From assembly GCA_025358205.1 (NCBI GenBank), contig JANYKG010000082.1:551-64550 (forward strand): a DNA stretch of 64,000 nucleotides, given 5' to 3'. The notes beneath the pieces are model-generated. The model did not search any database. It was not told the DNA's origin and saw only the letters and a list, made by a program, of their open reading frames with translations. Both the position numbers and the translations under genes were made by a program. Within the stretch, counting starts at the first letter, position 1. Every line of letters begins with the position of its first letter. Positions 3,714 to 62,409 of this stretch are shown here, piece by piece. The stretch comes from Armatimonadota bacterium (GTDB lineage: Bacteria > Armatimonadota > UBA5829 > DTJY01).

Positions 3714-3842
3714 TGGTTGAAAACGATTGACTCTGTGCTCGCAAAGTTGAGTGTATTATTGCACTTCACTTTGGTTCGTGGTATCCTATTGGTATTACAG
3801 TGAAGATGCGCTGCATTGATATTAACCATAGGTGACTGCATT

Positions 3843-3920
3843 AGGCCGCATTATTCACAAAAAGCGTGAATAATGCTCAGAAGGCCCTGGATTATTCAGT
3901 TCATGAATAATCCAGGCTAG
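3843..3920 (+). repeat. double-hairpin intergenic repeat, copy A (CCGCATTATTCAC...GTGAATAATGC-TCAGAAGG-CCCTGGATTATTCA...TGAATAATCCAGGCTAG)
   Basis: Hairpin 1 runs 3848-3858 / 3866-3876, followed by the conserved spacer TCAGAAGG. Hairpin 2 ends in CTAG at 3917-3920. The copy lies between trpS and the GNAT gene. Confidence 0.7.
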
Positions 3921-6216: not shown

Positions 6217-6293
6217 CCCTGGCCTGCATTATGCACAAAGAGCATAATGCAGGGCCTTCTGAGCATTATTCACGCTTTTCGTGAATAATGCGG
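6217..6293 (-). repeat. double-hairpin intergenic repeat, copy B (reverse orientation, co-oriented with rpmB)
   Basis: Reverse complement reads CCGCATTATTCACGAAAAGCGTGAATAATGC-TCAGAAGG-CCCTGCATTATGCTCTTTGTGCATAATGCAGG. It lies in the divergent region between rpmB and the CBS-DUF1385 gene. Confidence 0.65.
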
Positions 6294-6304
6294 ATCTGAA
6301 TATC

Positions 6305-20069: not shown

Positions 20070-21860
20070 ATGGGAACAGCAAGAAGAGATATAGGCGATC
20101 TGCTCATCGAGGCGCAAGTGATTACGCTGGAGCATCTTACCGAAGCGAAGGAAGTGCAGAAGAGCGCGCCTGGTGATTTGGGTCAGATTATACTGGACTT
20201 GGGGTTTGCGAACTCGAAACAGGTTATGCAGGCGCGCGCGCGTCTGATGAATATACAGTTTGTTGATCTTGCCACTCAGAAGCTGGACCCTGCGGCGTTG
20301 GCTGCGGTACCGGAGCATGTGGTGAGACGTCACTGTGTCATCCCGGTGTTTAAGAACGGCAACCGCCTGATGGTGGCCATGAGCGACACACAGAACATCA
20401 AGGCCATGGACGACCTTAGAGTCGTAACTCGTGGTATGCAGGTAGTTCCCGCCCTCGCTCTTCCTGACGCGATAATCGAAGCCATAGAGCGGCATTACAA
20501 GGGCGGCGACGGCGACGGCGCCTCTGCTGCCACTTCAGAAAGCGGTCTGCCTGTACCACCGAACGTAAACACACTGGAGAATTCGATTGGCGGCGGGCTG
20601 GCAGGCGTAAAGGATGCCATCGAGTCGTATAAATCGCGTGACATTGGCGATGAAGAAGACCCGGACGCGGTGGCGCAGATATCCGAGCAGGCTCCAATTA
20701 TCCGTGTGGCCAACACTATTATTCAGCAGGCGGTTCAGGTGGGCGCCAGTGATATCCACGTGGAACCGGACAGGCGGCACGTGCGAGTGAGATACCGCGT
20801 TGACGGTGTGTTGCACGAAGAAATGACCATCCCTAAGTATATTCAGGCGCCGCTAATCTCCAGGTTCAAGATCATGGCTGAGATGAACATCGCCGAACGG
20901 CGCGTACCACAGGACGGACGCATCCCGGTTCGCAAAGACGGCAAGGACTATGACCTTCGCGTGAGCTGCCTTCCTACGATCTGGGGCGAGAAGATTGTAT
21001 GCAGAATCCTGGACAAGAGCAGCGTACTTCTGGGTCTGAACAAGCTGGGTTTCAACAACGAAAACCTGGCCAAACTGGAAGAGATCATCACCCAGCCTAA
21101 CGGTATGTTCCTATGCACAGGCCCTACCGGTTCCGGCAAGACCACCACACAGTACGCCGTACTTCACAAGATTAACTCCGTAGATAGAAACATCATCACT
21201 GTTGAAGACCCGGTTGAGTATCAGCTTTCAGGTATCTCTCAGGTTCACGTGAACGTGAAAGCCGGATTGACGTTCGGCGGCGCACTTAGGTCGTTTCTGC
21301 GCCAGGACCCGGATATCATCATGGTCGGAGAAATGAGAGACTTGGAGACCGCCGAGATCGCGGTTGAAGCGTCTCTGACCGGTCACCTTGTTCTCTCAAC
21401 TCTGCATACCAACAACGCTCCTTCCGCCGTTATCCGAATGGTTGATATGGGAGTGGAGCCTTATCTTATATCCGCGACCGTTCACGGCGTACTGGCGCAG
21501 AGGCTGGCGCGAAAGATTTGCGCTCAATGCGGAGAGGACTACCAGACACATGCGAGCGATTTGAGGGTGCTGGGATACGAACCCAAGGACAAGGATGAGA
21601 TGGTCACCCTGCGCAGAGGGCGGGGCTGCGAGGTCTGCCGCCATACCGGGTTCAAGGGCAGAACCGGTATCCACGAGTTGATGACCATGAACGATGAAAT
21701 CGCGGAACTTACCGTCCGTCGCGCGCCGCTGGCAGACATCCGAGAGGCAGCGAAGGCGAACGGTATGCATGACCTGCGAGACGATGGCCTTGAGAAGGTC
21801 ATGAGCGGAGTCACCACGATCGAAGAGGTCAAGAAGGTTGTATTCACCGCCGGTCACTAG
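20070..21860 (+). CDS. pilB: type IV pilus assembly ATPase PilB (GspE family)
   Basis: N-terminal GSPII_E_N-like domain, Walker A CTGPTGSGKTTT, Asp/His boxes and a tetracysteine motif (CAQC...CEVC). The stop TAG 21858-21860 lies inside the CTAG terminus of repeat copy C. Confidence 0.9.
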   Translation: MGTARRDIGDLLIEAQVITLEHLTEAKEVQKSAPGDLGQIILDLGFANSKQVMQARARLMNIQFVDLATQKLDPAALAAVPEHVVRRHCVIPVFKNGNRLMVAMSDTQNIKAMDDLRVVTRGMQVVPALALPDAIIEAIERHYKGGDGDGASAATSESGLPVPPNVNTLENSIGGGLAGVKDAIESYKSRDIGDEEDPDAVAQISEQAPIIRVANTIIQQAVQVGASDIHVEPDRRHVRVRYRVDGVLHEEMTIPKYIQAPLISRFKIMAEMNIAERRVPQDGRIPVRKDGKDYDLRVSCLPTIWGEKIVCRILDKSSVLLGLNKLGFNNENLAKLEEIITQPNGMFLCTGPTGSGKTTTQYAVLHKINSVDRNIITVEDPVEYQLSGISQVHVNVKAGLTFGGALRSFLRQDPDIIMVGEMRDLETAEIAVEASLTGHLVLSTLHTNNAPSAVIRMVDMGVEPYLISATVHGVLAQRLARKICAQCGEDYQTHASDLRVLGYEPKDKDEMVTLRRGRGCEVCRHTGFKGRTGIHELMTMNDEIAELTVRRAPLADIREAAKANGMHDLRDDGLEKVMSGVTTIEEVKKVVFTAGH

Positions 21861-21936
21861 CCCGCATTATTCATAAAAAGCATGAATAATGCTCAGAAGG
21901 TTGCGGATTATGCGGAACATGCATAATCCGCGCTAA
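21857..21936 (+). repeat. double-hairpin intergenic repeat, copy C
   Basis: Sequence CTAGCCCGCATTATTCATAAAAAGCATGAATAATGC-TCAGAAGG-TTGCGGATTATGCGGAACATGCATAATCCGCGCTAA. It begins at the pilB stop codon. Confidence 0.7.
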
Positions 21937-21984
21937 TTGCCGGTGCGGAGAAAAATGCCGCGGCACTGTACACGGAGGCATGAG

Positions 21985-23157
21985 TTGCAGGAAAGTAACA
22001 TAACGACACAGATGTCATCGAGGGCCAATGGCCGGGGTACATCTGTCGAAGATATTCACATAGATGATTTGCTCCGCCTGATCGTGGAGCGCGGCGCGTC
22101 CGACCTGCATCTGGCGGTGGGTTTGCCGCCGATCCTGCGCACGGACGGCCAACTGGTGCAGACCGCGTATGCATTCCTGACGCCTCAGGATACTCAGCGG
22201 CTGATGTACGACATTCTGACCGATGAGCAGGTGCAGCGGTTCGAGTCGGCATTCGAACTGGACTTTTCCTATTCCATTGAGAAGCTGTCAAGATTTCGCG
22301 TGAATATTTTCAAAGACAAAGGCACAGTTGCGGCCGCGTTCAGGGTCATCCCCCAGAGAATTCCGACAATCCGCGAACTTGGGCTTCCACTCGTCCTTGA
22401 GGATCTGACCCGAAAGCCCAGAGGACTCATTCTAGTCACCGGTCCTACCGGATCAGGAAAGTCTACCACCCTTGCCGCGATGCTGAATCTGATTAACACC
22501 GAGCGAAACGTTCATATCATCACCATCGAGGACCCGATTGAGTACCTGCACACCCACCGAAGCAGCGTTATCAATCAGCGCGAACTGGGATCAGACACTA
22601 AGTCGTTCTCGAATGCGCTCAGGTCATCGCTGCGCGAAGACCCGGATGTGATTCTCGTTGGTGAAATGCGCGACCTGGATACTATCTCCACCGCCATTAC
22701 GTGCGCTGAAACGGGTCACCTGGTGCTGGCTACGTTGCACACGAACAACGCGCCTCAGACGGTGGACCGTATGGTAGACGTTTTTCCGTCCGATCAGCAG
22801 GAGCAGATACGCTTCATGTTGTCCAACAACCTGGAAGCGGTGGTTTGTCAGCAACTGCTTCCGAGAGCGGGTATGCCGGGCCGAGTGTGCGCCATGGAGA
22901 TCATGATGGCGACACCGGCAATACGTAACCTGATTCGGGAAAGCAAGGCCCACCAGCTTACGTCTGTGATACAGACCAGCGCCAACGTGGGCATGCAGAC
23001 GATGGATCAATCGCTCAGGGATCTGTACCAGAAGGGTCTTATTTCCTACGACGAGGCGCTCACCCGGTGTATGAACCCGGATGAGTTCAAGACAATGGTA
23101 TCTACTACCACCACGCGCGGCGGACGACCGCAGGCAGCGCCGGGCGGCTCTCAGTAG
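21985..23157 (+). CDS. pilT: type IV pilus retraction ATPase PilT
   Basis: Walker A GPTGSGKSTT and PilT-type motifs are present. TTG 21985 is proposed as start because GGAGG lies 6 nt upstream. The alternative ATG at 22012 has no RBS. Confidence 0.85.
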   Translation: MQESNITTQMSSRANGRGTSVEDIHIDDLLRLIVERGASDLHLAVGLPPILRTDGQLVQTAYAFLTPQDTQRLMYDILTDEQVQRFESAFELDFSYSIEKLSRFRVNIFKDKGTVAAAFRVIPQRIPTIRELGLPLVLEDLTRKPRGLILVTGPTGSGKSTTLAAMLNLINTERNVHIITIEDPIEYLHTHRSSVINQRELGSDTKSFSNALRSSLREDPDVILVGEMRDLDTISTAITCAETGHLVLATLHTNNAPQTVDRMVDVFPSDQQEQIRFMLSNNLEAVVCQQLLPRAGMPGRVCAMEIMMATPAIRNLIRESKAHQLTSVIQTSANVGMQTMDQSLRDLYQKGLISYDEALTRCMNPDEFKTMVSTTTTRGGRPQAAPGGSQ

Positions 23158-23160
23158 GTT

Positions 23161-23239
23161 TGGACCGCATTATTCATGAACAGCATGAATAATGCTCAGA
23201 AGGCCGCAGATTATGCGGGACATGCATAATCCGCGCTAG
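23161..23239 (+). repeat. double-hairpin intergenic repeat, copy D
   Basis: Sequence GACCGCATTATTCATGAACAGCATGAATAATGC-TCAGAAGG-CCGCAGATTATGCGGGACATGCATAATCCGCGCTAG. It starts 4 nt after the pilT stop. Confidence 0.7.
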
Positions 23240-23278
23240 GACCGGATGGAGCATTTGGCTCCAAGGGAGTGATGTAAG

Positions 23279-24514
23279 ATGGCAACTTTTGCATATACAG
23301 TCAAAGACGCAGCGGGAACGATGAGGAAAGGCACCTCGGAAGGCGAGAACGAAGCCGTTGTGGTTCGTCGCCTGCAAGAGCAGGGGATGACGATCGTCAA
23401 CATCAAGCCGGGCAAAGCGGCCAAGGCCAAGTCCGGCGGCGGTGGGTTTGGCAGCGTCAAACTTGTTGACCTTTCCATTTTCTGTCGGCAGTTCTCTACC
23501 ATGGTTGACGCGGGTGTATCACTGGTGCGGTGTCTTACCGTTCTTAGCGAACAGTCAACCAGCCCCAAATTGCGACGAATCATCACCGAGATCGAGCAGG
23601 AAGTTCAGAGCGGACAGACGCTCTCGAAGGCGATGGCGAGGTATCCGGGCGTCTTCAACAGCCTGTTCATCGGTCTGGTCAAAGCAGGTGAGGTCGGCGG
23701 CGCGTTGGAGGAAAGCCTGCAGCGGTTGTCCGGATTCCTTGAGAAGGACCTGCAGCTCAGACGCAAAGTCAAAGGCGCCATGACGTATCCTACAATCGTT
23801 CTCGTAGTTGCGGTGACCATCGTCATAGGTCTGGTTACTTTCATAGTTCCGCAGTTTATGACCCTTTTCACCGACCTAGGCATGAAGCAAACGGACATGC
23901 CCAGCATGACTCGGTCGCTGATGCAATTCAGTAATTTCCTCACTACCAAGTGGTGGATATGCTTGCTCGTCGTCATTTCGTTTGTGGTTGGCATCAAGAT
24001 GTTTGGGAATACTAAAGTAGGACGCAGAGTTCTTGACCGCGTCAAACTAAAAGCGCCGGTCTTTGGTCCATTGAACCACAAAGTGTGCCTGGCCAGGTTC
24101 TCCCGGACCCTCGCCACATTGCTGTCGAGCGGTGTACCCATTCTTTCGGCCATGGAGACGGTGGCAGGCACGGTGGCCAATGAGATTCTTGGTGACGCGA
24201 TTTTGAACGCGCGGACCAGAATCCGTGAAGGTGACCGGATTGGTGAACCGCTGCAGAAGAGCAAGCTGTTCCCCCCGATGGTAGTGCAGATGATCAGCAT
24301 CGGCGAGGAATCCGGTTCGCTGGACAACATGCTTATGAAGGTGGCTGACTTCTACGAGGACGAGGTGGATGCGGCGCTGGAAAGCCTGACGTCCGCTATT
24401 GAACCTATCATGATCGTTGTTCTGGGTAGCGCTGTAGGATTCATCGTAATCGCTATGTTCAGCCCGCTTCTGGCGGTCATCTCTAACCTGAGTTCCGGCG
24501 GCGGAACCAACTAG
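23279..24514 (+). CDS. pilC: type IV pilus inner-membrane platform protein PilC (GspF family)
   Basis: Two T2SSF-like repeats with transmembrane segments. RBS AGGGAG. The stop TAG 24512-24514 lies inside the CTAG of copy E. Confidence 0.9.
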   Translation: MATFAYTVKDAAGTMRKGTSEGENEAVVVRRLQEQGMTIVNIKPGKAAKAKSGGGGFGSVKLVDLSIFCRQFSTMVDAGVSLVRCLTVLSEQSTSPKLRRIITEIEQEVQSGQTLSKAMARYPGVFNSLFIGLVKAGEVGGALEESLQRLSGFLEKDLQLRRKVKGAMTYPTIVLVVAVTIVIGLVTFIVPQFMTLFTDLGMKQTDMPSMTRSLMQFSNFLTTKWWICLLVVISFVVGIKMFGNTKVGRRVLDRVKLKAPVFGPLNHKVCLARFSRTLATLLSSGVPILSAMETVAGTVANEILGDAILNARTRIREGDRIGEPLQKSKLFPPMVVQMISIGEESGSLDNMLMKVADFYEDEVDAALESLTSAIEPIMIVVLGSAVGFIVIAMFSPLLAVISNLSSGGGTN

Positions 24515-24591
24515 CCCGCATTATTCACGAAGAACGTGAATAATGCTCAGAAAGGCCCTGCAATATGCCGGACGTGCATAATGCAGGCTAG
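24511..24591 (+). repeat. double-hairpin intergenic repeat, copy E (CTAG at both ends)
   Basis: Sequence CTAGCCCGCATTATTCACGAAGAACGTGAATAATGC-TCAGAAAGG-CCCTGCAATATGCCGGACGTGCATAATGCAGGCTAG. Confidence 0.7.
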
Positions 24592-24614
24592 CCCGGAAAG
24601 TATAAGAGTAGATC

Positions 24615-25463
24615 ATGCCGGAATGGCTGGGCGTAGCAATAGCAGTGCTGTATGGAACGATAGTCGGCAGTTTTCTGAACGTCTGTATATGGCGTCTGCC
24701 ACGGGATGAATCGTTGACGCATCCGGGTTCGCATTGCCCGCAGTGCGGAAAACTACTCCGTGCGTGGGATTTGGTCCCGCTGTTCAGCTTTCTGCTGCAG
24801 GGGTGCAAGTGCCGATACTGCAAAGGGCCTATCACCTGGCGTTATTTTAGCGTGGAGTTGCTCACCGGAGTGTACTTCGGGTTAGCGTACATGTTTGCTC
24901 TGAATAATTCCAATGCCGTGGTTGTGGACTTCCTGCAGTATGCTTTGTTCGGCGCTGCGCTGATAGCGATCTTCTTCATTGATCTGGAGCACTGGATAAT
25001 CCCGGATCAACTCAGTGTTTTTGGAATAGTTCTAGGGATTGGGCGGGATGTCTACGGCTTGGTAAGCCATACCAGAGAAACGTTCCACATTCCGGTGCCG
25101 TGGACGAGCCTGAGTGTTCCGTTACCGCAGTCTTTGGCGGGAATTTTCGCCTGTGGTGGAACATTTCTTGCCATTGCCGTAGTCAGTTACTATATATTCA
25201 AGAAGGAAGGCATTGGCGGTGGTGACATCAAGCTGGCCGCTGCAGTGGGGGCGAATCTGGCGCTTGGCCCGGCGATGCTATCCTTCTTCATAGCGGTTGC
25301 GCTGGGAAGCTTCATAGGCATAGGGCTTATGATTTTCGGGAGGAAGTCTCGAAAGGATTATGTGCCTTTCGGTCCGATGATGGTAGCAGGCGCCTTTGTT
25401 TCGATGTTTTACGGACAAACACTCATAAAGATGTATTACAGACTCGTTGGACTGGACGGCTAG
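24615..25463 (+). CDS. pilD: prepilin peptidase / N-methyltransferase PilD (A24 family)
   Basis: N-terminal tetracysteine CPQC...CRYC and the DiS-P-DiS core with transmembrane helices. Confidence 0.9.
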   Translation: MPEWLGVAIAVLYGTIVGSFLNVCIWRLPRDESLTHPGSHCPQCGKLLRAWDLVPLFSFLLQGCKCRYCKGPITWRYFSVELLTGVYFGLAYMFALNNSNAVVVDFLQYALFGAALIAIFFIDLEHWIIPDQLSVFGIVLGIGRDVYGLVSHTRETFHIPVPWTSLSVPLPQSLAGIFACGGTFLAIAVVSYYIFKKEGIGGGDIKLAAAVGANLALGPAMLSFFIAVALGSFIGIGLMIFGRKSRKDYVPFGPMMVAGAFVSMFYGQTLIKMYYRLVGLDG

Positions 25464-25493
25464 ACCGTTCGGCTCATCCAGGAGGGACTCAAA

Positions 25494-26423
25494 ATGCTAT
25501 CTTACAAACAGAGAAGTGGAATGACTCTCATTGAGCTGCTGGTAGTTATCGCCATCATCGGCGTGCTGGCAAGCATGATCTTTCCTGTGGCGTCAGCCGC
25601 CAAGGCGCGGGCCAAGAAGGCCCAGTGCATGAACAACATGATGCAGATTTTCACCGCTCTTAAGCAGTTTCAGCTTGACGAGCACAAGTACCCCGAGTTT
25701 ATCGTCGGCCCGGTTCAGTGGAAGGACAGTAATGGGATGTACACATACATGGCCGGCGGAACCATCGTGACATTGAACCAGAATACAGGTATGGTTGGCG
25801 GTCCGAACGGCGGCAATGGCCGAGCGGTAGCTCTGTACCCGGAGTATATCAGCGAGTTGGGCAGCATCAAATGTCCGACGTCCGATTTGAATGAGGATTG
25901 GGTTTCGCCTCCAGTAGGCTCTTCTCTGGGAATGGGTCGTCCTTACACAACCGGTATGCGGCTAAATGCATCCGGCACGCTAGTTGAAGACAATGAGTCC
26001 ATTTCTCTTGACCCGATGTTTCCGATTTTGAGCGCTTTCAACAAGGGCCCTGTCCCGTTCAGAGGCAAGGGACCGGCGGGTGACGGTTCCAAAGCGTTTT
26101 CGGTGTACAAGTACAGCAGCTATGACTATCAGAGACCGCTGAAAACAGCCGCTACCGGTGAGATTCACTACAGTACGAGCTGGAGTGACTATGACCCGAC
26201 TAAGCCGATGTCTACTCAACCCGGGATTGAGCGTCAGCTCAGGTGGCGCACGCCGCCATCGGATACGGTGGTAACCTGGTGTGCGTATCATCGGAATATG
26301 TCCGGGAGTGGTGTGCCGACAGGCGCAAGCAAGGACACTGTTCTGTTCCTGGACGGGCATGTTGACCAGAAGCCAAGTCCTGCCTTTATTCCGTGGACGA
26401 CAGGATGGAATACGGTTCCTTGA
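25494..26423 (+). CDS. prepilin-type N-terminal methylation-domain protein of the DUF1559 (H-X9-DG) type; candidate major pilin
   Basis: Leader MLSYKQRSG followed by MTLIELLVVIAIIGVLA, with Glu at +5. The C-terminal motif VLFLDGHV is typical of DUF1559. RBS GGAGGG. A terminator-like hairpin follows. Confidence 0.8.
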   Translation: MLSYKQRSGMTLIELLVVIAIIGVLASMIFPVASAAKARAKKAQCMNNMMQIFTALKQFQLDEHKYPEFIVGPVQWKDSNGMYTYMAGGTIVTLNQNTGMVGGPNGGNGRAVALYPEYISELGSIKCPTSDLNEDWVSPPVGSSLGMGRPYTTGMRLNASGTLVEDNESISLDPMFPILSAFNKGPVPFRGKGPAGDGSKAFSVYKYSSYDYQRPLKTAATGEIHYSTSWSDYDPTKPMSTQPGIERQLRWRTPPSDTVVTWCAYHRNMSGSGVPTGASKDTVLFLDGHVDQKPSPAFIPWTTGWNTVP

Positions 26424-26446
26424 TAGCCGATGTTTAGTCGGAAATC

Positions 26447-26492
26447 GGGATAACCGCGTGCAAGCAGGCAGGCGGTTATCTTGCATTTCGTG
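26447..26492 (+). terminator. terminator-like hairpin after the DUF1559 pilin gene
   Basis: Stem GGGATAACCGC (26447-26457) / GCGGTTATC (26472-26480) with a 14-nt loop, followed by TTGCATTTCG. The U-tract is weak, so it may only be partial. Confidence 0.4.
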
Positions 26493-26663
26493 GGTACAGC
26501 AAGGAACAATTGGCGTCGGCATGAAGTCGAACCTAGTGTGGGGGGCTGCAGACCCCGATGATGGGCTGCAAGCCGTGGCGAATCGGTGTTGATGCCAAAG
26601 GACACAGTGCGTCTAATGAACCAGACCATACAATCATCAAGAATGAAGCGGGTGATAAAGCAT

Positions 26664-28505
26664 ATGCCAGTGATCCGAAGCCTGCGCGATAGAACCGGCA
26701 CGTCACTGATTGAGGTGCTGATAACGCTGGTGGTATTTCTCACCGGTATGGTATACGTTGTCCGCATGTTCCCAGGCGGTTTTGTCAGCCTGAGGCATGA
26801 TGAGAACGTGACAGCGGCTAACCGTCTTGCCCAATCTGAGCTTGAGCGGCTGCAGGGCAGGGCGATCAACCTGCCAACAGGAATCCTGCCTTGGGGTTGG
26901 GACGGCACGGCGTATAATGTGCTTCCGTTGACCGACCCGGAGAACATGGACGACCAGGACACCAAAGGTCTGAGCATGCCGGCGAACTTCGACATGTACT
27001 ATAACACCGACGTGAACAAGTTCCGCCGCGTGCTGGGTGAGTACACGCGCATTCCATCCCCGATCACCACGAACGGTAATGTTGGCTCCATATACGTATT
27101 GCAGTACAGCCCGGTGATGGCTACCGATGTCACCTTCGCGAGTAACGACAATCCCGTACTGGTTGCGGGTGGCGCGCTAAGGCGGAGATGGGTCGCCTCC
27201 GGTCAGGCAGTGGCTTCCAGACTCAGGAGTTTTGGTGACTATGCCATTGATTATGATGAAGCAAAGATTTATCTGCGGCCCTCCACTTCCGCGAATCCCA
27301 GAAGATTCCTGATTAACTATTCCTACTGGGCGGGTAGCGGAACCAGTATGACTCTGACGCCGGTGATAGGAGTCCCTATCATTGTTGGTCCGGCAATCAC
27401 GTCAGATGTCAGCCGCGGATATGTGAAGATTGATATCCCTGCTCCTACAGGAGGTCTGATCAAGGCGGCAACCGGGTTTGACAGCATAGACCGTGCGAGT
27501 GATGTGCTCTCCAGACAGTTCGAGCAGTTGGCTGTTGGCACGGCATGGAGCACTGACGATCCGTATGAGTTTAAGATGATTGATCCGTACCGCGGAGTGG
27601 TGGCATTCAATCCTAGCGGATATTCGTATCAGGAATACACCGCGCGCGGCAGGCAGCCTCTGGTCGCGAACATCACCTATACAGTTCTGGACTGGCATAT
27701 TATCCGCGAAGAGCGCAAGTTGCCGTCCGTGTTGAACAGCGCGGCAGACCAGGACGTGAAGCTCACACTTCGCTACATCAAGGAGAGCGGTGAGACTGAG
27801 GAGTACGGTGGCGGAATGTACCAGGGACTGGCTCCTAACTACGGCTTGCCGTTTGACGTGATAGCGGTTGATGTGGAAACCGGGCTTTGGTACACGAATG
27901 CTGCTGGGTCAGTTGTTCCAGGCACAACACGCCCGGCGATGATGGTGGATTACAAGGGTGGAGTGATTAGATTCGACCCGGGATTTGTGGCGATTCACGC
28001 CAATGATTCAACGAAAGTCAGTCCGTTTGCCGGGAAGTCGTTCCGCATATTCTACCGTGCGGAAGGTGATTGGGCTGTGCAGACCTACAAAGCCTATGAG
28101 AGCTACCAGCGCAGCTACAACAATGGCATTAGCGGCTTGGATCAGCGGCAGTATTTCATGAATGGCAGTCTTCTCTACGTGGCTCAGTGCAACGCGGGCG
28201 GCACGGTGACCGTTGATTTTGCTTATACAGTCGGCAACAACCCACAGGAGTTATTCGCATCCGGCCAGGTTTATCAGATAAACGACGGCAGTGATAGCAG
28301 TATCCCTCCGTTCTGCGCGGACTTGACCTCAAGCTTGAGAAGCACCTACGGAGCTGGAGCCTTGATAAACGTCACCAGGGTCACGAAGGTCAATGGAGTA
28401 TCGCTTGGTGTAAGAGTGATATGGAGGGAATCCGGACGAGGATTCAGCGCCGGACGCTGGCGGAAGATCAAGCTTGAGACTTATCTTACACGATCAGATA
28501 GCTAG
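26664..28505 (+). CDS. PilV-like giant minor pilin (~613 aa)
   Basis: Class-III leader MPVIRSLRDRTG followed by TSLIEVLITLVVFLTGM, with Glu at +5. ATG 26664 has a GGGTGA RBS. The C-terminal ~550 aa are uncharacterised. Alternative upstream in-frame starts exist at 26586-26643. Confidence 0.7.
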   Translation: MPVIRSLRDRTGTSLIEVLITLVVFLTGMVYVVRMFPGGFVSLRHDENVTAANRLAQSELERLQGRAINLPTGILPWGWDGTAYNVLPLTDPENMDDQDTKGLSMPANFDMYYNTDVNKFRRVLGEYTRIPSPITTNGNVGSIYVLQYSPVMATDVTFASNDNPVLVAGGALRRRWVASGQAVASRLRSFGDYAIDYDEAKIYLRPSTSANPRRFLINYSYWAGSGTSMTLTPVIGVPIIVGPAITSDVSRGYVKIDIPAPTGGLIKAATGFDSIDRASDVLSRQFEQLAVGTAWSTDDPYEFKMIDPYRGVVAFNPSGYSYQEYTARGRQPLVANITYTVLDWHIIREERKLPSVLNSAADQDVKLTLRYIKESGETEEYGGGMYQGLAPNYGLPFDVIAVDVETGLWYTNAAGSVVPGTTRPAMMVDYKGGVIRFDPGFVAIHANDSTKVSPFAGKSFRIFYRAEGDWAVQTYKAYESYQRSYNNGISGLDQRQYFMNGSLLYVAQCNAGGTVTVDFAYTVGNNPQELFASGQVYQINDGSDSSIPPFCADLTSSLRSTYGAGALINVTRVTKVNGVSLGVRVIWRESGRGFSAGRWRKIKLETYLTRSDS

Positions 28506-28558
28506 GCCGCATGACTCACGAAGGGCGTGAATCATGCGCTTCGTGCATAGTGCATGCG
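28502..28558 (+). repeat. degenerate double-hairpin repeat, copy F
   Basis: Sequence CTAGGCCGCATGACTCACGAAGGGCGTGAATCATGCGCTTCGTGCATAGTGCATGCG. Hairpin 1 is retained with one mismatch and hairpin 2 is eroded. The CTAG contains the stop codon of the PilV-like gene. Confidence 0.5.
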
Positions 28559-28578
28559 AACAGGGAAGTGATGCAGGT

Positions 28579-30408
28579 ATGCCCAAGTTGAGATTAGATA
28601 ATAAAGGGTTCACCCTGATAGAAATACTGGTGGTGCTGGCGCTGACCATGCTGGTCATGGGCCTGATCTTTTCGCCGCTCGTGAGCAGCCTGAAGGTTAC
28701 GCGCAGCGCGGAGATCATCATCAGGACGCAGGACAATGCCAGATTGGCGCTGGCTCAGATAACCTCTGATCTGAGCAATGCCATGTATGTGTATGATGAC
28801 ACCGAGAACTACATGAACTTCCCGGTGAAGGATGCAACCGGGGCTTCGGCGGTGGCGCGGGTATACAACTCCAAGGTTGACATGATCCTGCCGAGAGTAC
28901 GCCAAGTTTGCCCGAAGGATGCATCACACACGCCAGAGAAACCGGCGAACGAACTGGAAGAAGTAGGTCCTGTGTGCCAGGTTTGCGGTGAAAGGCTGGA
29001 GTCGAAACCTATTCAGCCGCTGACACAGGATACCAAGATTGTGCGGTATTTCATCGGGCTGAAGGACCCCACGCAACCGTATACGAATGGTTATACGGAT
29101 CAGTTGGCGGAGGCGGGAGCGCCGGATAATTCTCATATCCTGTATCGGGTGGAGTTCGATCCGATGGACCCCACGCTCTTCCCGGCGCTTGACCCGGTCA
29201 CCGGTAATCCCAGAACCGCGGACGACAACAGGCAAGACGAGAACTTTTTTTACAATACTTCGATTGCCCCCGATGGCAGGTCGTTTGCCGATAACTGGAA
29301 GAAGATAGTCCGCCCGGTGGTACAGTTGGAAGGCGTGGACCTGATTACGCTGGACTTTGATGATGCCGGCAAACCGGTTGTGACCCCATTGGCGAAGTTC
29401 GCTCCCACCGCCATCTACAACGATCCGCTGGTTCCCACATCTTCAAACGAGGATAACCCTGAGCGCGGAGATGCTCCTCCTGCCACGTACAAGGCGTCTT
29501 ACGGCTACTGGGTGATGCCGTACAAGGTGACACTGGAGCCGGAGGGTGGCAACGGGGAAATTTATGAGACCAACAGAGGGATGGGACTGAGCGGTGTGGC
29601 TGATCCGAGCAACAACATGTGCATATACAAGATGGACCCCACAGCAGCGCCCATGCTTGTCTTCAACATCACGCACTACGAAACCACAAAAGCTATATCG
29701 GCTTACGGCATGGGTGATATCAACGTTCCGATCACAGACCGTCAGCGCATCTTTACAGTGGACACCATGAAGGGCACCGTGAACTTTGCGTTCCCGAACA
29801 TTGACCCAACAAAATCCGCCGCGTTTAATGCCAGGCTTGCCGGCGGTGCAACGCAAAACCGTTCGCTGAGTGACCTTGCCAGTACGGACAAGATATCCCT
29901 GGACCCGGCTACGAAGTTTTTGCTGAACTGCCCGCACATTGGAACGGGGGCATACGATCCACGGATTCTCAACAATGGAACGGTGGTTCCAGGCTCGGTG
30001 AAGGTGATTGCGCCTGATGCTCTGCAGTCTGCTTCCGTACCGCCGTTGGTAACGTACACCAAGGTGCCGTATCTCCTGAGCGAACCGGCGGCCAATCAGT
30101 ATAACGTGGATATGTCATACAACATGGATGAGAGCAACGCTGTAATGCCCGGTGTCGCGGCTTTGTATTTCAACCGACTCAGGGGCGTGGGTTCCGGTGC
30201 GCAGCCCTCACTTCCCAGTGGCACAGACAATGTTCTTATTTACTATAAGGTTCAGAACAACAAAAAGGGCGACGTGCTGCGGGCGAATTACATCACCAAG
30301 AGCGTGATGACTGTGACTGTGGGCATACATATCTACGATACCGGAGCGAAAAAGCCCCAGTCAGTGCAGTTCACGAGCCGCGTCCGCCTAAAGAACATCG
30401 CGTTGTGA
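28579..30408 (+). CDS. PilW-like giant minor pilin (609 aa)
   Basis: Leader MPKLRLDNKG followed by FTLIEILVVLALTM, with Glu at +5. The downstream QDNARLALAQITSDLSNAMYVYD resembles the PilW conserved region. An internal CQVCGERLE Cys pair is present. Confidence 0.72.
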   Translation: MPKLRLDNKGFTLIEILVVLALTMLVMGLIFSPLVSSLKVTRSAEIIIRTQDNARLALAQITSDLSNAMYVYDDTENYMNFPVKDATGASAVARVYNSKVDMILPRVRQVCPKDASHTPEKPANELEEVGPVCQVCGERLESKPIQPLTQDTKIVRYFIGLKDPTQPYTNGYTDQLAEAGAPDNSHILYRVEFDPMDPTLFPALDPVTGNPRTADDNRQDENFFYNTSIAPDGRSFADNWKKIVRPVVQLEGVDLITLDFDDAGKPVVTPLAKFAPTAIYNDPLVPTSSNEDNPERGDAPPATYKASYGYWVMPYKVTLEPEGGNGEIYETNRGMGLSGVADPSNNMCIYKMDPTAAPMLVFNITHYETTKAISAYGMGDINVPITDRQRIFTVDTMKGTVNFAFPNIDPTKSAAFNARLAGGATQNRSLSDLASTDKISLDPATKFLLNCPHIGTGAYDPRILNNGTVVPGSVKVIAPDALQSASVPPLVTYTKVPYLLSEPAANQYNVDMSYNMDESNAVMPGVAALYFNRLRGVGSGAQPSLPSGTDNVLIYYKVQNNKKGDVLRANYITKSVMTVTVGIHIYDTGAKKPQSVQFTSRVRLKNIAL

Positions 30409-30466
30409 AGATGACATTCCGTTCGTAGCAGTACGGCGCGGAAGGGGAGAAGGTAGCAGAGAAAGC

Positions 30467-33373
30467 ATGGATAGAAAAAGCCGAACTTCATTCTTCACCA
30501 ATATGGTAGTATCTCGGCGTGGGCAGACACTTGTGCTTGCGCTGATTATCCTGTTCATGCTGGTATTCCTGGGCGGGCTGTTCGTGACACTTATTGCGCG
30601 GAATCTGGCCCGAACCAGGCGCAGCGGCCAGACGTTGACCGCGGAATACCTTGCAGAGACAGGTGTGCGGTATGCCAGCGATCAGCTTACGTACAGTCTG
30701 GACGGCGCGGACTGGCGTCCGGTGCCGAACTACCCGGATGTGATAAGAAATCTGAATGGCGACAACATAACCACTCCGGTAAAGCCGAACCTATCTGACC
30801 CGGACTACGATTGGCTGACGAAGGGATATTGCCGATTCACGTATGGGGACGGTAGATTTCTCATCAGAGTAACTTATGAACCCAAGTTCGGTGATCCTAT
30901 CTCCAAGTACATCAAAATCGAATCCATAGGCCGTGTGGGCGTCGTGGACGAAAACGACCCTACAACGCTGGACCTGAAGCAGCCGCTACGCCTGAGAGCG
31001 GAACGTGTGGCGTACAAGGCTATCGGCATTACGGATTACTCCAGGTTCATCACAAATCAGGACAGGCGCACGGAGGCATTTGGCTTGGGCGTTCCGGCTT
31101 ACACTCAGCCCAACGGCTTGAAGCAAGCGTTCACCACTCAGTATGGTGACGTGAGTGACTATAACGGTGACACCATACCGGAGCCGCACGGTGGGTCAAT
31201 CCGCGTGAACGGCAACCTGACTTGGTACGGCAAGAACTTCATCTGGCTGGACGCTAAGCATAACGAGGCTGTGGAAGTGGCAGGGGATATCAGTCACGCT
31301 GTGGAGTGGTCCGGCGGCGGCAATGGCCCCACGCCGGAATCCACGATGGTGTACCTGAATCCTGACCGCACTATCTCAGGCTGGCGGACGAATCTTCTCT
31401 TGCGGCAGAGTTCTGATCCGTATTTTGATACCAGCACGGATAACCCAAGTGCGTCTGTGGGCGTGTATCGAGACGGTCGGCCCGAAGGTGATGTCGGCGT
31501 TACGATTGCCGGAGTTTTGCATCGCAGACCGCGCGGCATACAAAGGCTTGATCCGCCGCTGCTCGATGTTACCGGTCCGACAGGCGGCACGGGCAGATAC
31601 CGCGAACTCACTCGCAACTCCGGCGAATGGCTGCCCCCCGCATCTACTGGAGGCACGTGGTACAACACCGGTTTCTACGGATGGGGTAAAGGCCTGTACA
31701 TCAACAACCGAGACGACCTCCAGACCGAGTCTGATCTGAAGACGCTGAGGGATGATTGGATGAACCCCGGCGAATCGCAGAACTGGGTTGGACCGTACTA
31801 CAACCCGCCTGGAATAATCATGGTGCTTACGCCATATGATCTTGACAACGATGATGGCGATAATAACCCGATGACAGGCAAGCCGGACATCATTCTGATG
31901 GAGTCGAACACGTCAGGGGCGAAGTTCAACTGGTATGACAAGAACGGTGGCATCATTACACCCGGCGCCGGGCAGATGGTGATGCCCTATCCCGAGAACG
32001 GCATCATTTTTGCGGAAGGCAATATTCGCATCAAGGGTATGCTCGCGCCGCACAAACAGCTCACCGTGGTTTCGGCGGGTACTATCTATGTGGAAGGGAA
32101 TGTTCTGAAGTGCGGGCTTAAAGACGATGGCACTCCAATGCTGCCGACCGATCCTAAGGACAGCAGCATTGCGCTTCTGGCCACCGACTACGTTGCCGTG
32201 AATGCCACTCAGTTCTTCGGACCCGCGCCGGAGAGCCAGACTCCTGGTAGCTGGCGTCCTGAAATGGGCGGGTTTGATGCGTCGGTGGACCATCCGTTGA
32301 GTTTCGACTTCGCGTTCGGCATGGACCCGTCCGCATGGTATGGAACTATGCCCGTATGCGCGTATGTGCGTCATGCGGCGGACGGCGGCTCTGCTTACAT
32401 GAATATGACGGTCAACCAATTTGGCGCAGGGGCTGATCCGGGCGATCCCACTGATCAATGGTATGGCTTCTACAAGTTCGACATGCAGCCGTGGAGTACC
32501 CTTATTCCGCCTGCTCAGCCCGCGCGGCAGTACATCTACCCCATGGCGGATATTGATGCGGCGGCGACGGTGTTTCCGGTTCCGCCAAATAGCCCGACGG
32601 ATCAATCCAACCTTGTGGCGGTGCAAACTTACCCAATATGGGAGCATCAGGTCTTCACGATATTCCCGCTGAGTAACCCGCCCAGGCCGGATCAGAACTA
32701 TGCGCTGAATATCTTCCCCGGTTCCAGCAATCAGATCGGCTTCCGGCTGGATCAGAACATAGCGAAAGCGGATTACCTGCTTTCAAGGTTCGCAGTGCAG
32801 CCTTGTGACATTCGCGTGGAGGCGATGCTGTACGCTCAGAACGGGTCTTTCTACGTGATATCGGGTGCGCCGTTCAACCCTGATCCAGGCGACAGCAGAA
32901 ATGAGTTCCTGAAGGGGAACGCTGCCGTTTCGGGGAGGCTGGCACGCATGGGCATTGATGAGCGGTGGCCTTTCTATGGTGAGCCGCTGGATGTGCGTTT
33001 GATTATCAACGGTTCGGTGAGCGAGAACGTCAGCGCGCCGATAGCGGATCAAGCAGCATGGATGTCGGCGTGGGGGTGGATTCCGCCCTCACACGGATCG
33101 AGTCCACTGCCGGCGGATGAGGTCATCGGGTACCGGTCGCCTCTCGATCCTGAGAACTCGGAGACTGTTGCGGGCACTAGTGCGTTGCCTGTTCGTCAGC
33201 GTGGGCTATCCATCATCTACGATGATATGCTTTCGTACCCGAAGGTGCCTACTGTTGCCACAGATAGAACCAAGGACGTGCAGATCAGGCGTGATCTTTA
33301 TCTGCGGCCGTTAGCCGTTACGCCAAAGCTGCCGGTGAGCAGTCAGACAATATTCTTTGGCCGTCCCACTTGA
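30467..33373 (+). CDS. PilX N-terminal-domain protein, 968 aa
   Basis: The N-terminus RRGQTLVLALIILFMLVFLGGLFVTLIARNLARTRRSGQTLTAEYLAETGVRYASDQL matches the PilX_N pattern. RBS GGGGAGAAGG. The large C-terminal region has no clear homology that I can assign. Confidence 0.7.
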   Translation: MDRKSRTSFFTNMVVSRRGQTLVLALIILFMLVFLGGLFVTLIARNLARTRRSGQTLTAEYLAETGVRYASDQLTYSLDGADWRPVPNYPDVIRNLNGDNITTPVKPNLSDPDYDWLTKGYCRFTYGDGRFLIRVTYEPKFGDPISKYIKIESIGRVGVVDENDPTTLDLKQPLRLRAERVAYKAIGITDYSRFITNQDRRTEAFGLGVPAYTQPNGLKQAFTTQYGDVSDYNGDTIPEPHGGSIRVNGNLTWYGKNFIWLDAKHNEAVEVAGDISHAVEWSGGGNGPTPESTMVYLNPDRTISGWRTNLLLRQSSDPYFDTSTDNPSASVGVYRDGRPEGDVGVTIAGVLHRRPRGIQRLDPPLLDVTGPTGGTGRYRELTRNSGEWLPPASTGGTWYNTGFYGWGKGLYINNRDDLQTESDLKTLRDDWMNPGESQNWVGPYYNPPGIIMVLTPYDLDNDDGDNNPMTGKPDIILMESNTSGAKFNWYDKNGGIITPGAGQMVMPYPENGIIFAEGNIRIKGMLAPHKQLTVVSAGTIYVEGNVLKCGLKDDGTPMLPTDPKDSSIALLATDYVAVNATQFFGPAPESQTPGSWRPEMGGFDASVDHPLSFDFAFGMDPSAWYGTMPVCAYVRHAADGGSAYMNMTVNQFGAGADPGDPTDQWYGFYKFDMQPWSTLIPPAQPARQYIYPMADIDAAATVFPVPPNSPTDQSNLVAVQTYPIWEHQVFTIFPLSNPPRPDQNYALNIFPGSSNQIGFRLDQNIAKADYLLSRFAVQPCDIRVEAMLYAQNGSFYVISGAPFNPDPGDSRNEFLKGNAAVSGRLARMGIDERWPFYGEPLDVRLIINGSVSENVSAPIADQAAWMSAWGWIPPSHGSSPLPADEVIGYRSPLDPENSETVAGTSALPVRQRGLSIIYDDMLSYPKVPTVATDRTKDVQIRRDLYLRPLAVTPKLPVSSQTIFFGRPT

Positions 33374-33381
33374 TCTTGTGA

Positions 33382-33417
33382 CTAGTCCGCATTACTCACT
33401 TTGTGCATAATACGGGC
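33382..33417 (+). repeat. remnant of the double-hairpin repeat, copy G
   Basis: Sequence CTAGTCCGCATTACTCACTTTGTGCATAATACGGGC. It appears to be half of hairpin 1 fused to half of hairpin 2, starting 9 nt after the stop of the PilX-like gene. Confidence 0.4.
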
Positions 33418-33547
33418 TGGAAGTGGAACACAGCGGGCCTCAAAGTCGTTTAACTAAGTGTGACCTTGACCTGCATTGTTCATGGAGAACGTGAATCACG
33501 CAGGTTATAGAGGAAACGCGTCCGACGCGTATTGGATGGTGAGTGAA

Positions 33548-36500
33548 ATGGCAAGACGATTCGTCAGATACACATTCGCAATAATGCTCTGTGCGGTGTT
33601 GACCACCGGGGCGCTATACGCTGCCAGCTTTACCTACTCAGACCAGGCGAAGCGGATCAAGGCCGGGGTGGTGTTGCCTTCCCTGCCTCCTCCTCCCCCT
33701 CTAGATCCTCGCATGGATCCGGCCAACCGCCCGAACCCATACGTGTTTTATATTATGGATCAGCGTCAGGACATGAAGCCTGCGGGCTGGGAGTTCTACA
33801 ATCCATACGCGTCTTCGCATGTTACCACAGACATGGCGGCCAGATGGGGCGGCATGTGCGCGGTAGGCGACGTTATTGATAAGTCCATGGGGTGTTACTG
33901 GGAGGTTCCGATCGGTGAGGTGAACCCAGACGATCTGGCGCAGTACGATGTGCTTTTTCTCAGCGGATACGGCAACATGACGTTCAACGGCCGCGAGAAG
34001 GAGAAGCTGCGGAAGTTTGTGGATAACGGCGGTGTGCTGTGGGTTGACTATCAGCAGAAGCCAGGGTATCCGGGTCTTCAGACGACGCTTGACCCGACGT
34101 TTTTCGTGCCTTCGATAGCGTTTTCAAATGGCGGCGTGGGTATGAGCGTGCGCGCGGATATCCCGAAAGCGGCAAGTGCGCATGCGCTCTTGAACAGACC
34201 TTTCCTCGTTTCAGGCATGGATGCGAATCTTCTGGGGGGTGGCGGCGGTGCGGCGCCTGGCAATGAATTCTTGAGTCTGGTTGGTGAGGCGCTGCAGACA
34301 TTCATGCCGATAGTGGCGCGCGGCGGCAACCAAGTGGTTTCGGCGGCGCAGTACGGCAGCGGGTACATTGTTGTTACCGCGGACGGCGTGGCGCAGGCGA
34401 TCACCAATCCGGTTGGCGTGGCCGGCGCGGTGTGCGGCAAGTTCTTCATTGCGGCGCAACCGGAGGATCTGAAGCTTTCGTACAACATCGTGAACTGGGG
34501 ATCGGAGTCCCCGGCTCCACGGAAGAACCCCAGACAAACGGGGGGTTCTTTTGAGGAGATAGGTATGCCCCTGGTGCCGCTGTGGAGTTATACCGCGACG
34601 ACGCCCGGCATGAGTGTGAACAGCTCACCGGTTATTCTCGATGACATGATATTCTATGTGGACGGCAACAATGTGCTGCATGCATTCGACTTGTCGCCGA
34701 TACGCGACCGTGACGGAGATGGGAATCCCGATGACGGCCTCCCTGACTACTCGACCGGATCGCCGTGTGACGAACTATGGCGGGTAAGCATTGGTGAGCC
34801 TTGCTCTTCTCCTACTGCGGCCTATGTTCCCATCGGCGGAGGGGTAGTCGGCGCGGTTCCTACCGTGTTCATTGTGACCCAATCAGGCAAAGTGACTGCC
34901 TACAACGCGCTGGATTACACCACAAGTACGGGGCCTACGCCAGTGCAGCTCTTTACTGATTCCAGCCAGGCGCTAAATCCGTTTGTCTTCCCGCCTACTG
35001 CACTTGATACGCGAATACCTGCTGCCACCTATGCTGAGGGTTCGCTCTATGTGGGCGACGGACGTGGGGTTATACACGTTCACAACTTCTTATCTACAGG
35101 CGCAGTCCCGGAATGGAGACACGTGGCCATAGCAAACAATCCGGCTGATGGCATGATTTCGAACTCGCCTACCGTCGGCTATTTTTATGACGCAACCAGC
35201 GGCGCTACCGAGTTGGTTGCCTATCTGAACGGGCGCGGGACGCCTACTCTGGGGGCGAATCCTTATACCGCAGCATATCCTTTAAGTTCGTTCAATGAGA
35301 CACTTGTCCCGGATAATCCAGCAGCTACCCCAGGTCTGTATCGCATACGTTCTGTAAATGCCTATATCGCCACGACTCCGATTGCTCCATTTGATCCGAG
35401 ATTGTACTATACCGACCCCACAACCGGCGCCTTGAATCCAATTCCTACTACCGACTATACACTGCAGAACCCAGGGAAGTTTCAGATTATCAATCCTTCC
35501 GCAACTCTGACGACCATCACCGCATTGGGCGCGTCCGTGGTTGCAGACTATTGGCTTGACTACACGAACCCAGCGGCAACAACGTCGTGGCGATCCATCC
35601 AGATCTGGGGTAACGATAACCCTCTTGACAAGTTGGGCATTACAGGCTCGGCTGCTGCAGGCAAGAACAACACTCTGTATTACGGCACCGAGAACGGCTC
35701 CATTTATGCCGTCAGGGAGACTGGTCGGGCCGGAGCGACCATTGGTGGGGGACCGCTGAGAACTCCTCTTGTGGTGAAGTGGCGCTGGTGCTTCCAGGAC
35801 CCAACTGTCAAAGCGGTAATCGGGACCAATAATGTTGAGATTGTCGGATCACCGGTAGTGGTGAACGATATGGTGTATTTCGGTGTGAATATTGGCAACC
35901 AGGGATTCCTTTTTGCGTTCCAGGCCGATCCGGCGTTTACCATCAGGCTCAATCAGCCGATAGCGCCTAATACGCAGGTGATTCTGAAGCAGATGGACTC
36001 CTTGAGACCGACGACGCCAGTTGCCGGTGTGCCAAGGAATTACGTGGCAGCATCTGACACGGACGTTGACAAGGCGGCGGGTGATACGGTTGCTCTGGTG
36101 GACTATGATACCAGCAAGATATCCGTCATCAACTTCAAAGGTGTTGGCGGCGAGTTGACGTCTTCGGCTGACCTCGTTGTGGAGTATGTCCCGGCGGCCG
36201 CGGTGGTACCCGGTCAGACGCCTATTCCGATTCAGGAACCTCATTACGCGTTCCTGCCGAACTCCGGCGACAATTGGAACAACCTGAAATGGTTCATGAG
36301 ACTGGAGGATATCTCGGTCAATCCGGTAATGAACTACAAGATAGCGTCATCCCCTACGGTGATGGGAGACGTTCTGTACATCGGTTGCCAGGACGGCACC
36401 ATGATCGCGGTGGACGTGGGCAAGGCGAACCAGGCCGCTCCCAAGCAGATGTTGGGCAATGTGCAGGAGAAGTATTTCAAGAATATCCTGACAATCACCG

Positions 36501-48653: not shown

Positions 48654-48775
48654 TGAGCGCACAACGATCCGGGTCGGCAAAGAATAATCGTGACGGGTAA
48701 GAACATTTGGCCGACAGAAGTCGTCTTAGTATCGATAGTCTACAGATTTCACGATGGCGGAAGGAGAATTTTGCC

Positions 48776-51269: not shown

Positions 51270-51477
51270 CTATACGCAATTGAATAATGTCTGCCGTAGA
51301 CCGCAGGTGTTCACGGACTTAAGGGGTGAAGACCCGCCTGCCGAGGCTTGGAGCCGTTCTCGATATATTATGTCGAGTGCGTTTTTCTTGAAGCAAGGGG
51401 ATCCCCGGTGTCTACGGTGATCCCTTTATTATTTTATGGGGTGGGGTATATACCCACCGACCGAGGAGGTGAAATAC
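51270..51477 (+). promoter_or_regulatory. rplJ (L10) leader region with hairpins and a U-tract attenuator-like element
   Basis: About 200-nt untranslated leader. It contains CTCGATATATTATGTCGAG followed by TGCGTTTTTTC and a GGGATCCCCGGTGTCTACGGTGATCCC hairpin. This is consistent with an L10(L12)4 autoregulatory leader by analogy, which is an inference. Confidence 0.45.
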
Positions 51478-62296: not shown

Positions 62297-62366
62297 CTAG
62301 GCCGCATAATTCACTAGAAAAGTGAATAATGCTCTGAAGGCCTTTCGTTGATGCGGAAGACGCACA
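62297..62366 (+). repeat. double-hairpin intergenic repeat, copy H (diverged), between rpsG and fusA
   Basis: Sequence CTAGGCCGCATAATTCACTAGAAAAGTGAATAATGC-TCTGAAGG-CCTTTCGTTGATGCGGAAGACGCACAATG. Hairpin 1 has one mismatch and hairpin 2 is degenerate. Confidence 0.55.
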
Positions 62367-62409
62367 ATGAAAACTAAGAGTTGGAGAATGGCTCCAGGGT
62401 GTTGTAGTA

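Follow-up and report, generated by a model that had tools for sequence, protein, structure and literature searches.

Copies of a CTAG-duplicating miniature repeat at the gene junctions of a pilus operon in an Armatimonadota bacterium

We analyzed a 64,000-nucleotide (nt) stretch of DNA from an Armatimonadota bacterium (GenBank assembly GCA_025358205.1, contig JANYKG010000082.1, positions 551 to 64,550; hereafter, the window, with positions numbered from its first letter), in which copies of a short palindromic repeat occupy junctions between genes of a pilus (pil) operon, some of them with the stop codon of the upstream gene embedded in a terminal CTAG. With a probability of about 0.85, these repeats are MITEs (miniature transposable elements with inverted repeats) of about 72 nt that duplicate the 4-base-pair (bp) target CTAG and are mobilized in trans by a DDE transposase, most likely one of the type encoded by the insertion sequence IS5; we infer the IS5 type from the spectrum of duplicated targets alone. 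A cut-and-paste transposase of this kind, supplied in trans, would cut CTAG (more broadly, YTAR) with a 4-bp stagger, and repair would duplicate the target, leaving CTAG on both sides of the element. Insertions at CTAG sites inside genes would be purged by selection, and the surviving sites would be intergenic CTAGs and TAG stop codons preceded by C (hereafter, C-TAG stops). At the latter, the left copy of the duplication would regenerate the stop codon and leave the gene undamaged; insertion there would thus be harmless, hence the stops embedded in the CTAG termini.

The evidence, all of it observed directly, comprises a repeat family with inverted termini, a target duplication, empty orthologous sites and the occupancy of CTAG sites. 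The element is small and non-coding, has many copies, and is present or absent at orthologous sites, which, together with its termini and duplication, are traits of a MITE; the family is new, but its kind, that of bacterial “junk” repeats, is known. The striking regularity of its placement can be accounted for without regulation: C-TAG stops are free landing sites for a CTAG-duplicating transposon, and a genome that favors TAG as a stop and has few other CTAGs offers it mainly the ends of genes. A need of the pilus operon for the element is not supported by any of the observations.

Copies and anatomy of the element

A 16-nt core of the repeat was seen 6 times in the window against 0.03 expected, and a profile search identified 9 copies in 8 junctions, every copy being intergenic. 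The full copies are A–E, of which B is inverted; identity between the bodies of the window copies is 75–90%. In the pil operon, copy C (21857..21936, + strand) starts with CTAG at 21857-21860, which contains the TAG stop of pilB (21858-21860), and continues with the body (21861-21932) and a right flank, CTAA. Copy D (23160..23239, + strand), identical to copy C at 65 of 72 positions, has a decayed left flank, TTGG (23160-23163), which lies 2–4 nt past the pilT stop (23155-23157), a body at 23164-23235, and CTAG on the right. Copy E (24511..24591, + strand) consists of CTAG at 24511-24514, including the pilC stop (24512-24514), a 73-nt body (24515-24587), and CTAG at 24588-24591. Copy F (28502..28560, + strand) begins with CTAG at 28502-28505, which holds the stop (28503-28505) of the gene at 26616-28505, and has a degenerate 51-nt body (approximately 28506-28556) supported by an nhmmer E-value of 3e-5. 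In copy G (33382..33420, + strand), CTAG is followed by a 31-nt single-hairpin body, with a left arm of the hairpin 1 type and a right arm of the hairpin 2 type, and then by CTGG; single-hairpin counterparts flanked by CTAG on both sides exist in metagenomes. The CTAG of copy G (33382) is about 8–9 nt past a TGA stop (33371-33373), and the same spacer holds a second, decayed single hairpin (33470..33504, + strand; CCTGCATTGTTCATG..CGTGAATCACGCAGG; −19.4 kcal/mol).

An earlier note on this DNA, made from the sequence alone, had reported that the stops of pilB, pilC, and the gene at 26616-28505 lie within the CTAG of the repeat; this is indeed the case, the open reading frames (ORFs) ending at 21860, 24514, and 28505, respectively, and the three TAG stops being bases 2–4 of the CTAG that adjoins the element body. 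The note also correctly placed copy D just past the pilT stop and copy G 9 nt past 33371-33373. Its extension of the pattern to copies outside the operon stands only in part. Copies A and H are located 3' of trpS and rpsG, as it said, but only loosely, 128 nt past the trpS stop (3713) and 28 nt past the rpsG stop (62269). Copy A (3841..3920, + strand; TTAG at 3841-3844, a 72-nt body at 3845-3916, CTAG at 3917-3920; RNA fold of −36.3 kcal/mol, z −7.2) lies in the trpS|GNAT spacer, and copy H (62297..62377, + strand; CTAG at 62297-62300, a full-length body with a decayed second hairpin, CTAA at 62374-62377) in the rpsG|fusA spacer. The inverted copy B (6219..6298, − strand) has a 72-nt body (6223-6294) and decayed flanks, CAGA/CCAG on the element strand.

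The body of the element is 72–73 nt long (31–35 nt in short forms, which consist of one hairpin), lacks coding capacity, and folds into two hairpins of 11–13 bp each, with the layout CCCGCATTATTCAC-loop-GTGAATAATGC-linker-CCYGNATTATGC-loop-GCATAATNCRGG. The left terminus is 5'-CCCGCATTAT..., and the right end is its reverse complement, CCYGNATTAT; across 54 aligned copies, these terminal inverted repeats read CCCGCATTATTCAC at the left end and CCYGNATTATGC as the reverse complement of the right end. As RNA, the two-hairpin copies A–E and H give −31 to −39 kcal/mol (z −5 to −7). The family includes 35-nt one-hairpin forms between CTAG and CTAG (loci, denoted by L and a number, L137 1565-1603, L182 1249-1286, L185, L231, and L233 1610-1646) as well as chimeras in which unrelated hairpins (CCCATGAGGTGCGTGATACGCACC..., CGAAGCTTTATTCGCTTCGCGAATAAAGCGGG) replace the second hairpin (L123, L140, L157, and others).

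CTAG is a target-site duplication

A scan of metagenomes with hairpin 1 yielded at least 120 loci; a profile search found 136 copies in the loci listed, and, of these, 76 unique canonical copies served for flank statistics (all metagenome copy figures are among the matches listed). The same 4-mer is present on both sides of 52 of the 76 copies, and in 31 of those 52 it is CTAG/CTAG. When at least one flank is not CTAG, the left and right flanks are identical in 21 of 45 copies compared to 3.9 expected, a level that was reached in none of the 10,000 shuffles. These variants occur as direct repeats, TTAG/TTAG (6 copies) and CTAA/CTAA (4 copies) along with CTGA, CTAT, ATAG, GTAG, CCGG, and CTTG; the target consensus, C59 T66 A62 G62 of 76, is CTAG or, broadly, YTAR. 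Because the non-CTAG flanks match as direct repeats, CTAG is not part of an inverted terminus but is a 4-bp target-site duplication. Its spectrum matches the one published for IS5, namely, Py-T-A-Pu, with CTAG the commonest target and CTAA and TTAG next (PMC5493358 Table 3; PMC5009759). A duplication of TA only, as in IS630-like elements, with the element itself ending in G...C, had fitted copies A, C, and H without mutation as well as the TAA stop of pilB in two relatives; we rejected it given that the outer flank bases covary from left to right in the metagenome copies.

The same flanks bear on the possibility that the repeats are repetitive extragenic palindromes (REPs), moved as single-stranded DNA by a REP-associated tyrosine transposase (RAYT, an IS200/IS605-like Y1 enzyme), with CTAG acting as a guide or cleavage tetranucleotide at the hairpin foot, similarly to GTAG. 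Enterobacterial REPs, their mosaic elements (BIMEs), and the GTAG/CGTC REPs are, like the element, the units of which are either solitary or paired, abundant short extragenic palindromes that often lie just 3' of stop codons; GTAG REPs can provide, through their termini, the TAG stop of a flanking ORF (PMC3733652), and no DDE partner of the element was found in the loci that carry it or in the window, as detailed below. REPs, however, have a tag at one end, no target duplication, and a tie to RAYT Y1 transposases, whereas the element is bounded on both sides by a tetranucleotide direct repeat that covaries when it is not CTAG; this is a target duplication, and Y1 transposition produces none. 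Furthermore, its tag is neither GTAG nor CGTC, a filled site differs from the empty one by the body and 4 bp, and no Y1 transposase is present among the window proteins scanned with Pfam. The two-sided direct duplication and the tag led us to reject a REP/RAYT identity, which we regard as highly improbable.

Empty sites in related pil loci

Six syntenic pil loci with the same operon gene order were available for comparison with the window, L110, L112, and L113, in which PilC is 81–83% identical to that of the window, and L234–L236, with 76–78% identity; the PilC relatives carry the annotation Armatimonadota. No copy of the element was detected in these six loci (80.6 kb, nhmmer E ≤ 10). In L234–L236, the junctions are short: 23 nt at pilB|pilT (two of the three loci), 47–52 nt at pilT|pilC, and 19–26 nt at pilC|pilD. 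In L110, L112, and L113, several spacers exceed these lengths, reaching as much as 177 nt, in part due to unrelated hairpins. The end of pilC, aacTAG, is common to the window, L110, L112, and L113, and, at pilC|pilD, the window equals L112 plus the body and one CTAG (77 nt), the spacer to the pilD ATG, counted from copy E in the window, being 23 nt in both. PilB ends with ...VVFTAGH at the same codon everywhere, followed by the stop in the form cacTAG or cacTAA. Thus, the orthologous empty sites already end at the same stop codon, from which we conclude that, judging by this comparison, the stop codons are ancestral and the insertions came later. Some of the same pil junctions in element-free relatives hold long perfect palindromes unrelated to the element (L110 8620-8798 and 17172-17279; L113 8534-8607), and pil spacers seem to be generally permissive for hairpin repeats.

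The family was found at pil junctions in a second lineage, L132/L232 (metagenome Ga0315284), in which PilB and PilC are, respectively, 84% and 77% identical to those of the window. There, copies (L132 2509-2592; L232 358-441 and 1673-1753) occupy the C-TAG stop of pilB and the pilT|pilC spacer; the copy in pilT|pilC is an independent insertion, being at a different site from that in the window and having a different duplication, CTAT/CTAT. The pilC gene of L232 ends with cagTAG, not CTAG, and its pilC junction is empty. Protein identities make the window the outlier among these loci, so that the shared copy at the pilB stop requires either two gains or a gain combined with a loss. In the comparison of orthologous pil loci, which the earlier note had proposed as a check, the insertions are at pre-existing stops, and copies are absent from these junctions in six relatives and present in L132/L232.

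Contig L107, from the same organism in another run, is a short-read contig equivalent to window positions 23212-24539, with its start in copy D and its end in copy E; the repeat is thus a point at which assemblies break, which is an independent sign of high copy number. Such breaks matter for the assembly and binning of genomes of this kind.

Occupancy of CTAG sites and stop codons

The window contains fewer CTAGs than expected, 41 compared to 78 under a Markov model and 239 under a zero-order model, a depletion of about two-fold and about six-fold relative to the Markov expectation and to base composition, respectively. Of these CTAGs, 25 are in coding sequences, and 9 of the 16 outside them belong to the element; TAG is the commonest stop, used by 22 of the 41 ORFs. 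In the element-bearing loci, the numbers of occupied and free CTAG sites are 0 and 147 in coding sequences, 58 and 63 in intergenic regions, and 25 and 25 at stop codons. Stop-codon and intergenic CTAGs are thus occupied equally (25/50 vs 58/121, Fisher p = 0.87). In 30 of 83 copies, the duplication exactly covers the stop of an ORF that is 100 or more amino acids (aa) long, which makes stop embedding a general property of the family. Exact overlap with a stop is improbable under random intergenic placement and occurs at the expected rate given a CTAG target; embedding results from target choice and selection. Within the window, three of the seven C-TAG stops are occupied, the empty ones being those of pilD, the gene at 33548-37858, pilM, and rpoC.

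When junctions are counted using Pfam-supported genes and the gene calls of the assembly itself, the segment from pilB to the gene at 33548-37858 (1436 aa) contains 8 junctions, of which 5 are occupied (pilB|pilT, pilT|pilC, pilC|pilD, 26616-28505|28579-30408, and 30467-33373|33548-37858) and 3 are empty; the earlier count of five occupied junctions out of six did not hold. Per junction, occupancy in the pil segment (5/8) exceeds that elsewhere (3/33; Fisher p = 0.003). Per tolerated CTAG site, the values are 5/7 and 3/8 (p = 0.31), so that the apparent enrichment in the pil segment disappears once sites rather than junctions are counted.

Of the two explanations for the placement offered by the earlier note, the preference for insertion into TAG-containing CTAG at gene ends is borne out by the 4-bp duplication, the empty sites with the same C-TAG stop, and the equal occupancy. 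A regulatory role as the reason for the placement is not supported, given the six copy-free relatives, the lack of a U-tract, and the lack of an RNA-strand signature (see below). Overall, the observation made in that note is partly confirmed and its interpretation partly supported.

Possible effects on the transcript

We consider it unlikely that the repeats are selected intercistronic RNA elements, that is, double hairpins kept at pil junctions to act on the polycistronic mRNA by blocking 3'-5' decay, directing RNase processing, or slowing termination, and so setting the relative output of the ATPases, the platform protein, and the pilins. The hairpins are very stable (−33 to −39 kcal/mol) and, in three genes, begin 3 nt past the stop codon. 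No U-tract follows them, TCAGAAGG or CTAG coming next; no terminator-like or promoter-like site overlaps any copy in the window; and a search of Rfam at gathering score gave no match at the elements, the only match in the window being the L10 leader described below. An identity as intrinsic terminators or promoters was rejected on the grounds of the missing U-tract and the lack of a coincident signal. The pairing of hairpin 2 is preserved through compensatory changes, which is in favor of this alternative, but relatedness of subfamilies and requirements at the DNA level could explain such changes equally well. The stem mismatches of the G.U and A.C types occur at a ratio of 25:19, so that there is no RNA-strand signature, which argues against selection acting on one transcript strand.

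Comparative evidence speaks to this alternative in both directions. In its favor, pilB|pilT and pilT|pilC are both occupied in the second lineage, with the pilT|pilC copy at another site than in the window, whereas the six relatives with the same gene order and no copy indicate that the operon works without the elements. The equal occupancy of stop-codon and intergenic CTAGs and the loss of the pil enrichment per CTAG site also count against it, as does the decay of copies F, G, and H. Moreover, a separate, conserved terminator-like hairpin (26449-26480, with a T-rich tail to about 26492) already follows, immediately on the 3' side, the major-pilin-like gene (25494-26423). This hairpin is kept in the relatives that cover the spacer (L110 13071-13334, L112 5327-5601, L234 4747-5044, and L236 8977-9264), with changes in both arms of its stem. 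From these sequences, it appears to be a likelier device than the mobile repeats for setting the stoichiometry of the pilin versus the minor pilins.

The orientation of the copies leaves some room for an effect on the transcript. Considering the metagenome loci L114–L233 and window copies A–H, between tandem genes 21 copies are oriented with transcription and 7 against it (p = 0.0125; 6:1 in the window). With respect to the strand defined by GC skew, the ratio is 16:19, that is, there is no correlation, and we rejected replication strand as the cause of the bias, although this is a weak test because skew is noisy on short contigs. There is a precedent: REPs located no more than 15 nt from a stop codon lower translation, and REPs stabilize the upstream mRNA (work cited in PMC12306157), and transcripts of bacterial MITEs form stable stem-loops, some of which change the stability of co-transcribed mRNA (review, PMC10969869). 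By analogy, the hairpins could incidentally affect termination or decay, and any effect on pil mRNA would probably be a by-product as with REPs, a barrier to 3'-exonucleases or slowed termination when the hairpin begins no more than 15 nt from the stop. Co-option, whereby copies oriented with transcription would be kept between the genes of operons in preference to others (in two Armatimonadota lineages, repeatedly at pilB|pilT and pilT|pilC) because a double hairpin that begins 3 nt past a stop codon tunes termination and mRNA decay, seems quite doubtful to us. If it did occur, a CTAG-targeting MITE would serve as a portable unit, able to place itself on stop codons, that uncouples the expression of neighboring pilus genes. 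The orientation bias, if it is genome-wide, would provide a cheap test to distinguish neutral passengers from elements with an effect on the transcript.

Several points weigh against the interpretation of the repeats as IS5-mobilized MITEs that insert neutrally. The flanks of several window copies are not identical (for example, TTAG/CTAG in A, CTAG/CTAA in C, and TTGG/CTAG in D) and require later point mutation, which is plausible because the bodies themselves are only 75–90% identical. The 21:7 orientation bias is not predicted by purely neutral insertion, and the presence of the family at pilB|pilT and pilT|pilC in L132/L232 could mean selection at these junctions rather than a shared CTAG hot spot. 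The loci used for the occupancy counts were chosen for containing a copy, and their genes were delineated by a simple longest-ORF rule. Finally, neither the window nor 660 kb of loci that bear the element yielded an autonomous element or a transposase with matching ends. When 459 ORFs of these loci were clustered all against all, no multi-copy transposase emerged, and matched ends located 300–4000 bp apart with equal flanks yielded only two neighboring MITEs around an FlgM-like ORF. A search of genome contigs with the core of 15 specified bases, a pattern that is too short, produced only chance matches from unrelated phyla.

Relationship to known mobile elements and repeats

The closest parallels are IS5 and the MITEs derived from it, which share with the element the 4-bp Py-T-A-Pu duplication, with CTAG the commonest, and the bias to non-coding DNA. 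Unlike IS5, the element is without a detected transposase or full-length partner with matching ends in the sequences searched, and each of its ends (CCCGCATTAT...) itself forms one half of a perfect hairpin. The Correia elements of Neisseria and the ERIC, RUP, and Nezha MITEs likewise have inverted termini and target duplications and are small, lineage-specific, non-coding repeats of intergenic regions. They show no sequence relationship to the element, which has a shorter length (72 nt) and consists of two hairpins that resemble each other, and Correia and IS630-type MITEs duplicate TA only, compared with 4 bp here. IS711 of Brucella has the same YTAR target and prefers regions of palindromic repeats (PMC2266754), but duplicates only the central TA, whereas the element also duplicates the outer bases (TTAG/TTAG, CTAA/CTAA, CTAT/CTAT).

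The present analysis describes a repeat family of high copy number from uncultured Armatimonadota, for which the 72-nt consensus, together with the duplication rule, can be used in annotation.

Genes and other features of the window

The four genes that host the junctions occupied by copies C, D, and E, pilB-pilT-pilC-pilD, span 20070..25463 on the + strand, with starts as in the gene calls of the metagenome-assembled genome in which the window was located, GCA_043723985.1 (contig JAYSNH010000139.1): pilB (20070-21860; Pfam T2SSE/MshEN), pilT (21985-23157; T2SSE), pilC (23279-24514; T2SSF), and pilD (24615-25463; Peptidase_A24), all on the + strand. Farther along the window, Pfam supports PilM and a secretin and, in addition, trpS, rpsL, and rpsG. 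The other genes that define the junctions are the major-pilin-like gene and those at 26616-28505, 28579-30408, 30467-33373 (with the TGA stop at 33371-33373), and 33548-37858. The labels DUF1559, PilV-like, PilX-like, and PilY1-like, which the earlier note had attached to genes of this region, received no support from Pfam; only the prepilin N-methylation motif (N_methyl) was recognized, in two genes of the window.

All 41 ORFs of the 64-kb window are on the + strand, and GC skew is above 0 throughout, which suggests a long leading-strand stretch. A ribosomal protein L10 leader (Rfam RF00557, 47.7 bits) was identified at 51276-51439, upstream of an rplJ-like ORF. A 12-nt periodic repeat rich in Gly and Met codons (GGCGGCATGGGC and variants, about 11 copies) is located at 49250-49417, inside an STN-domain ORF (48707-49423) that lies upstream of the secretin gene.

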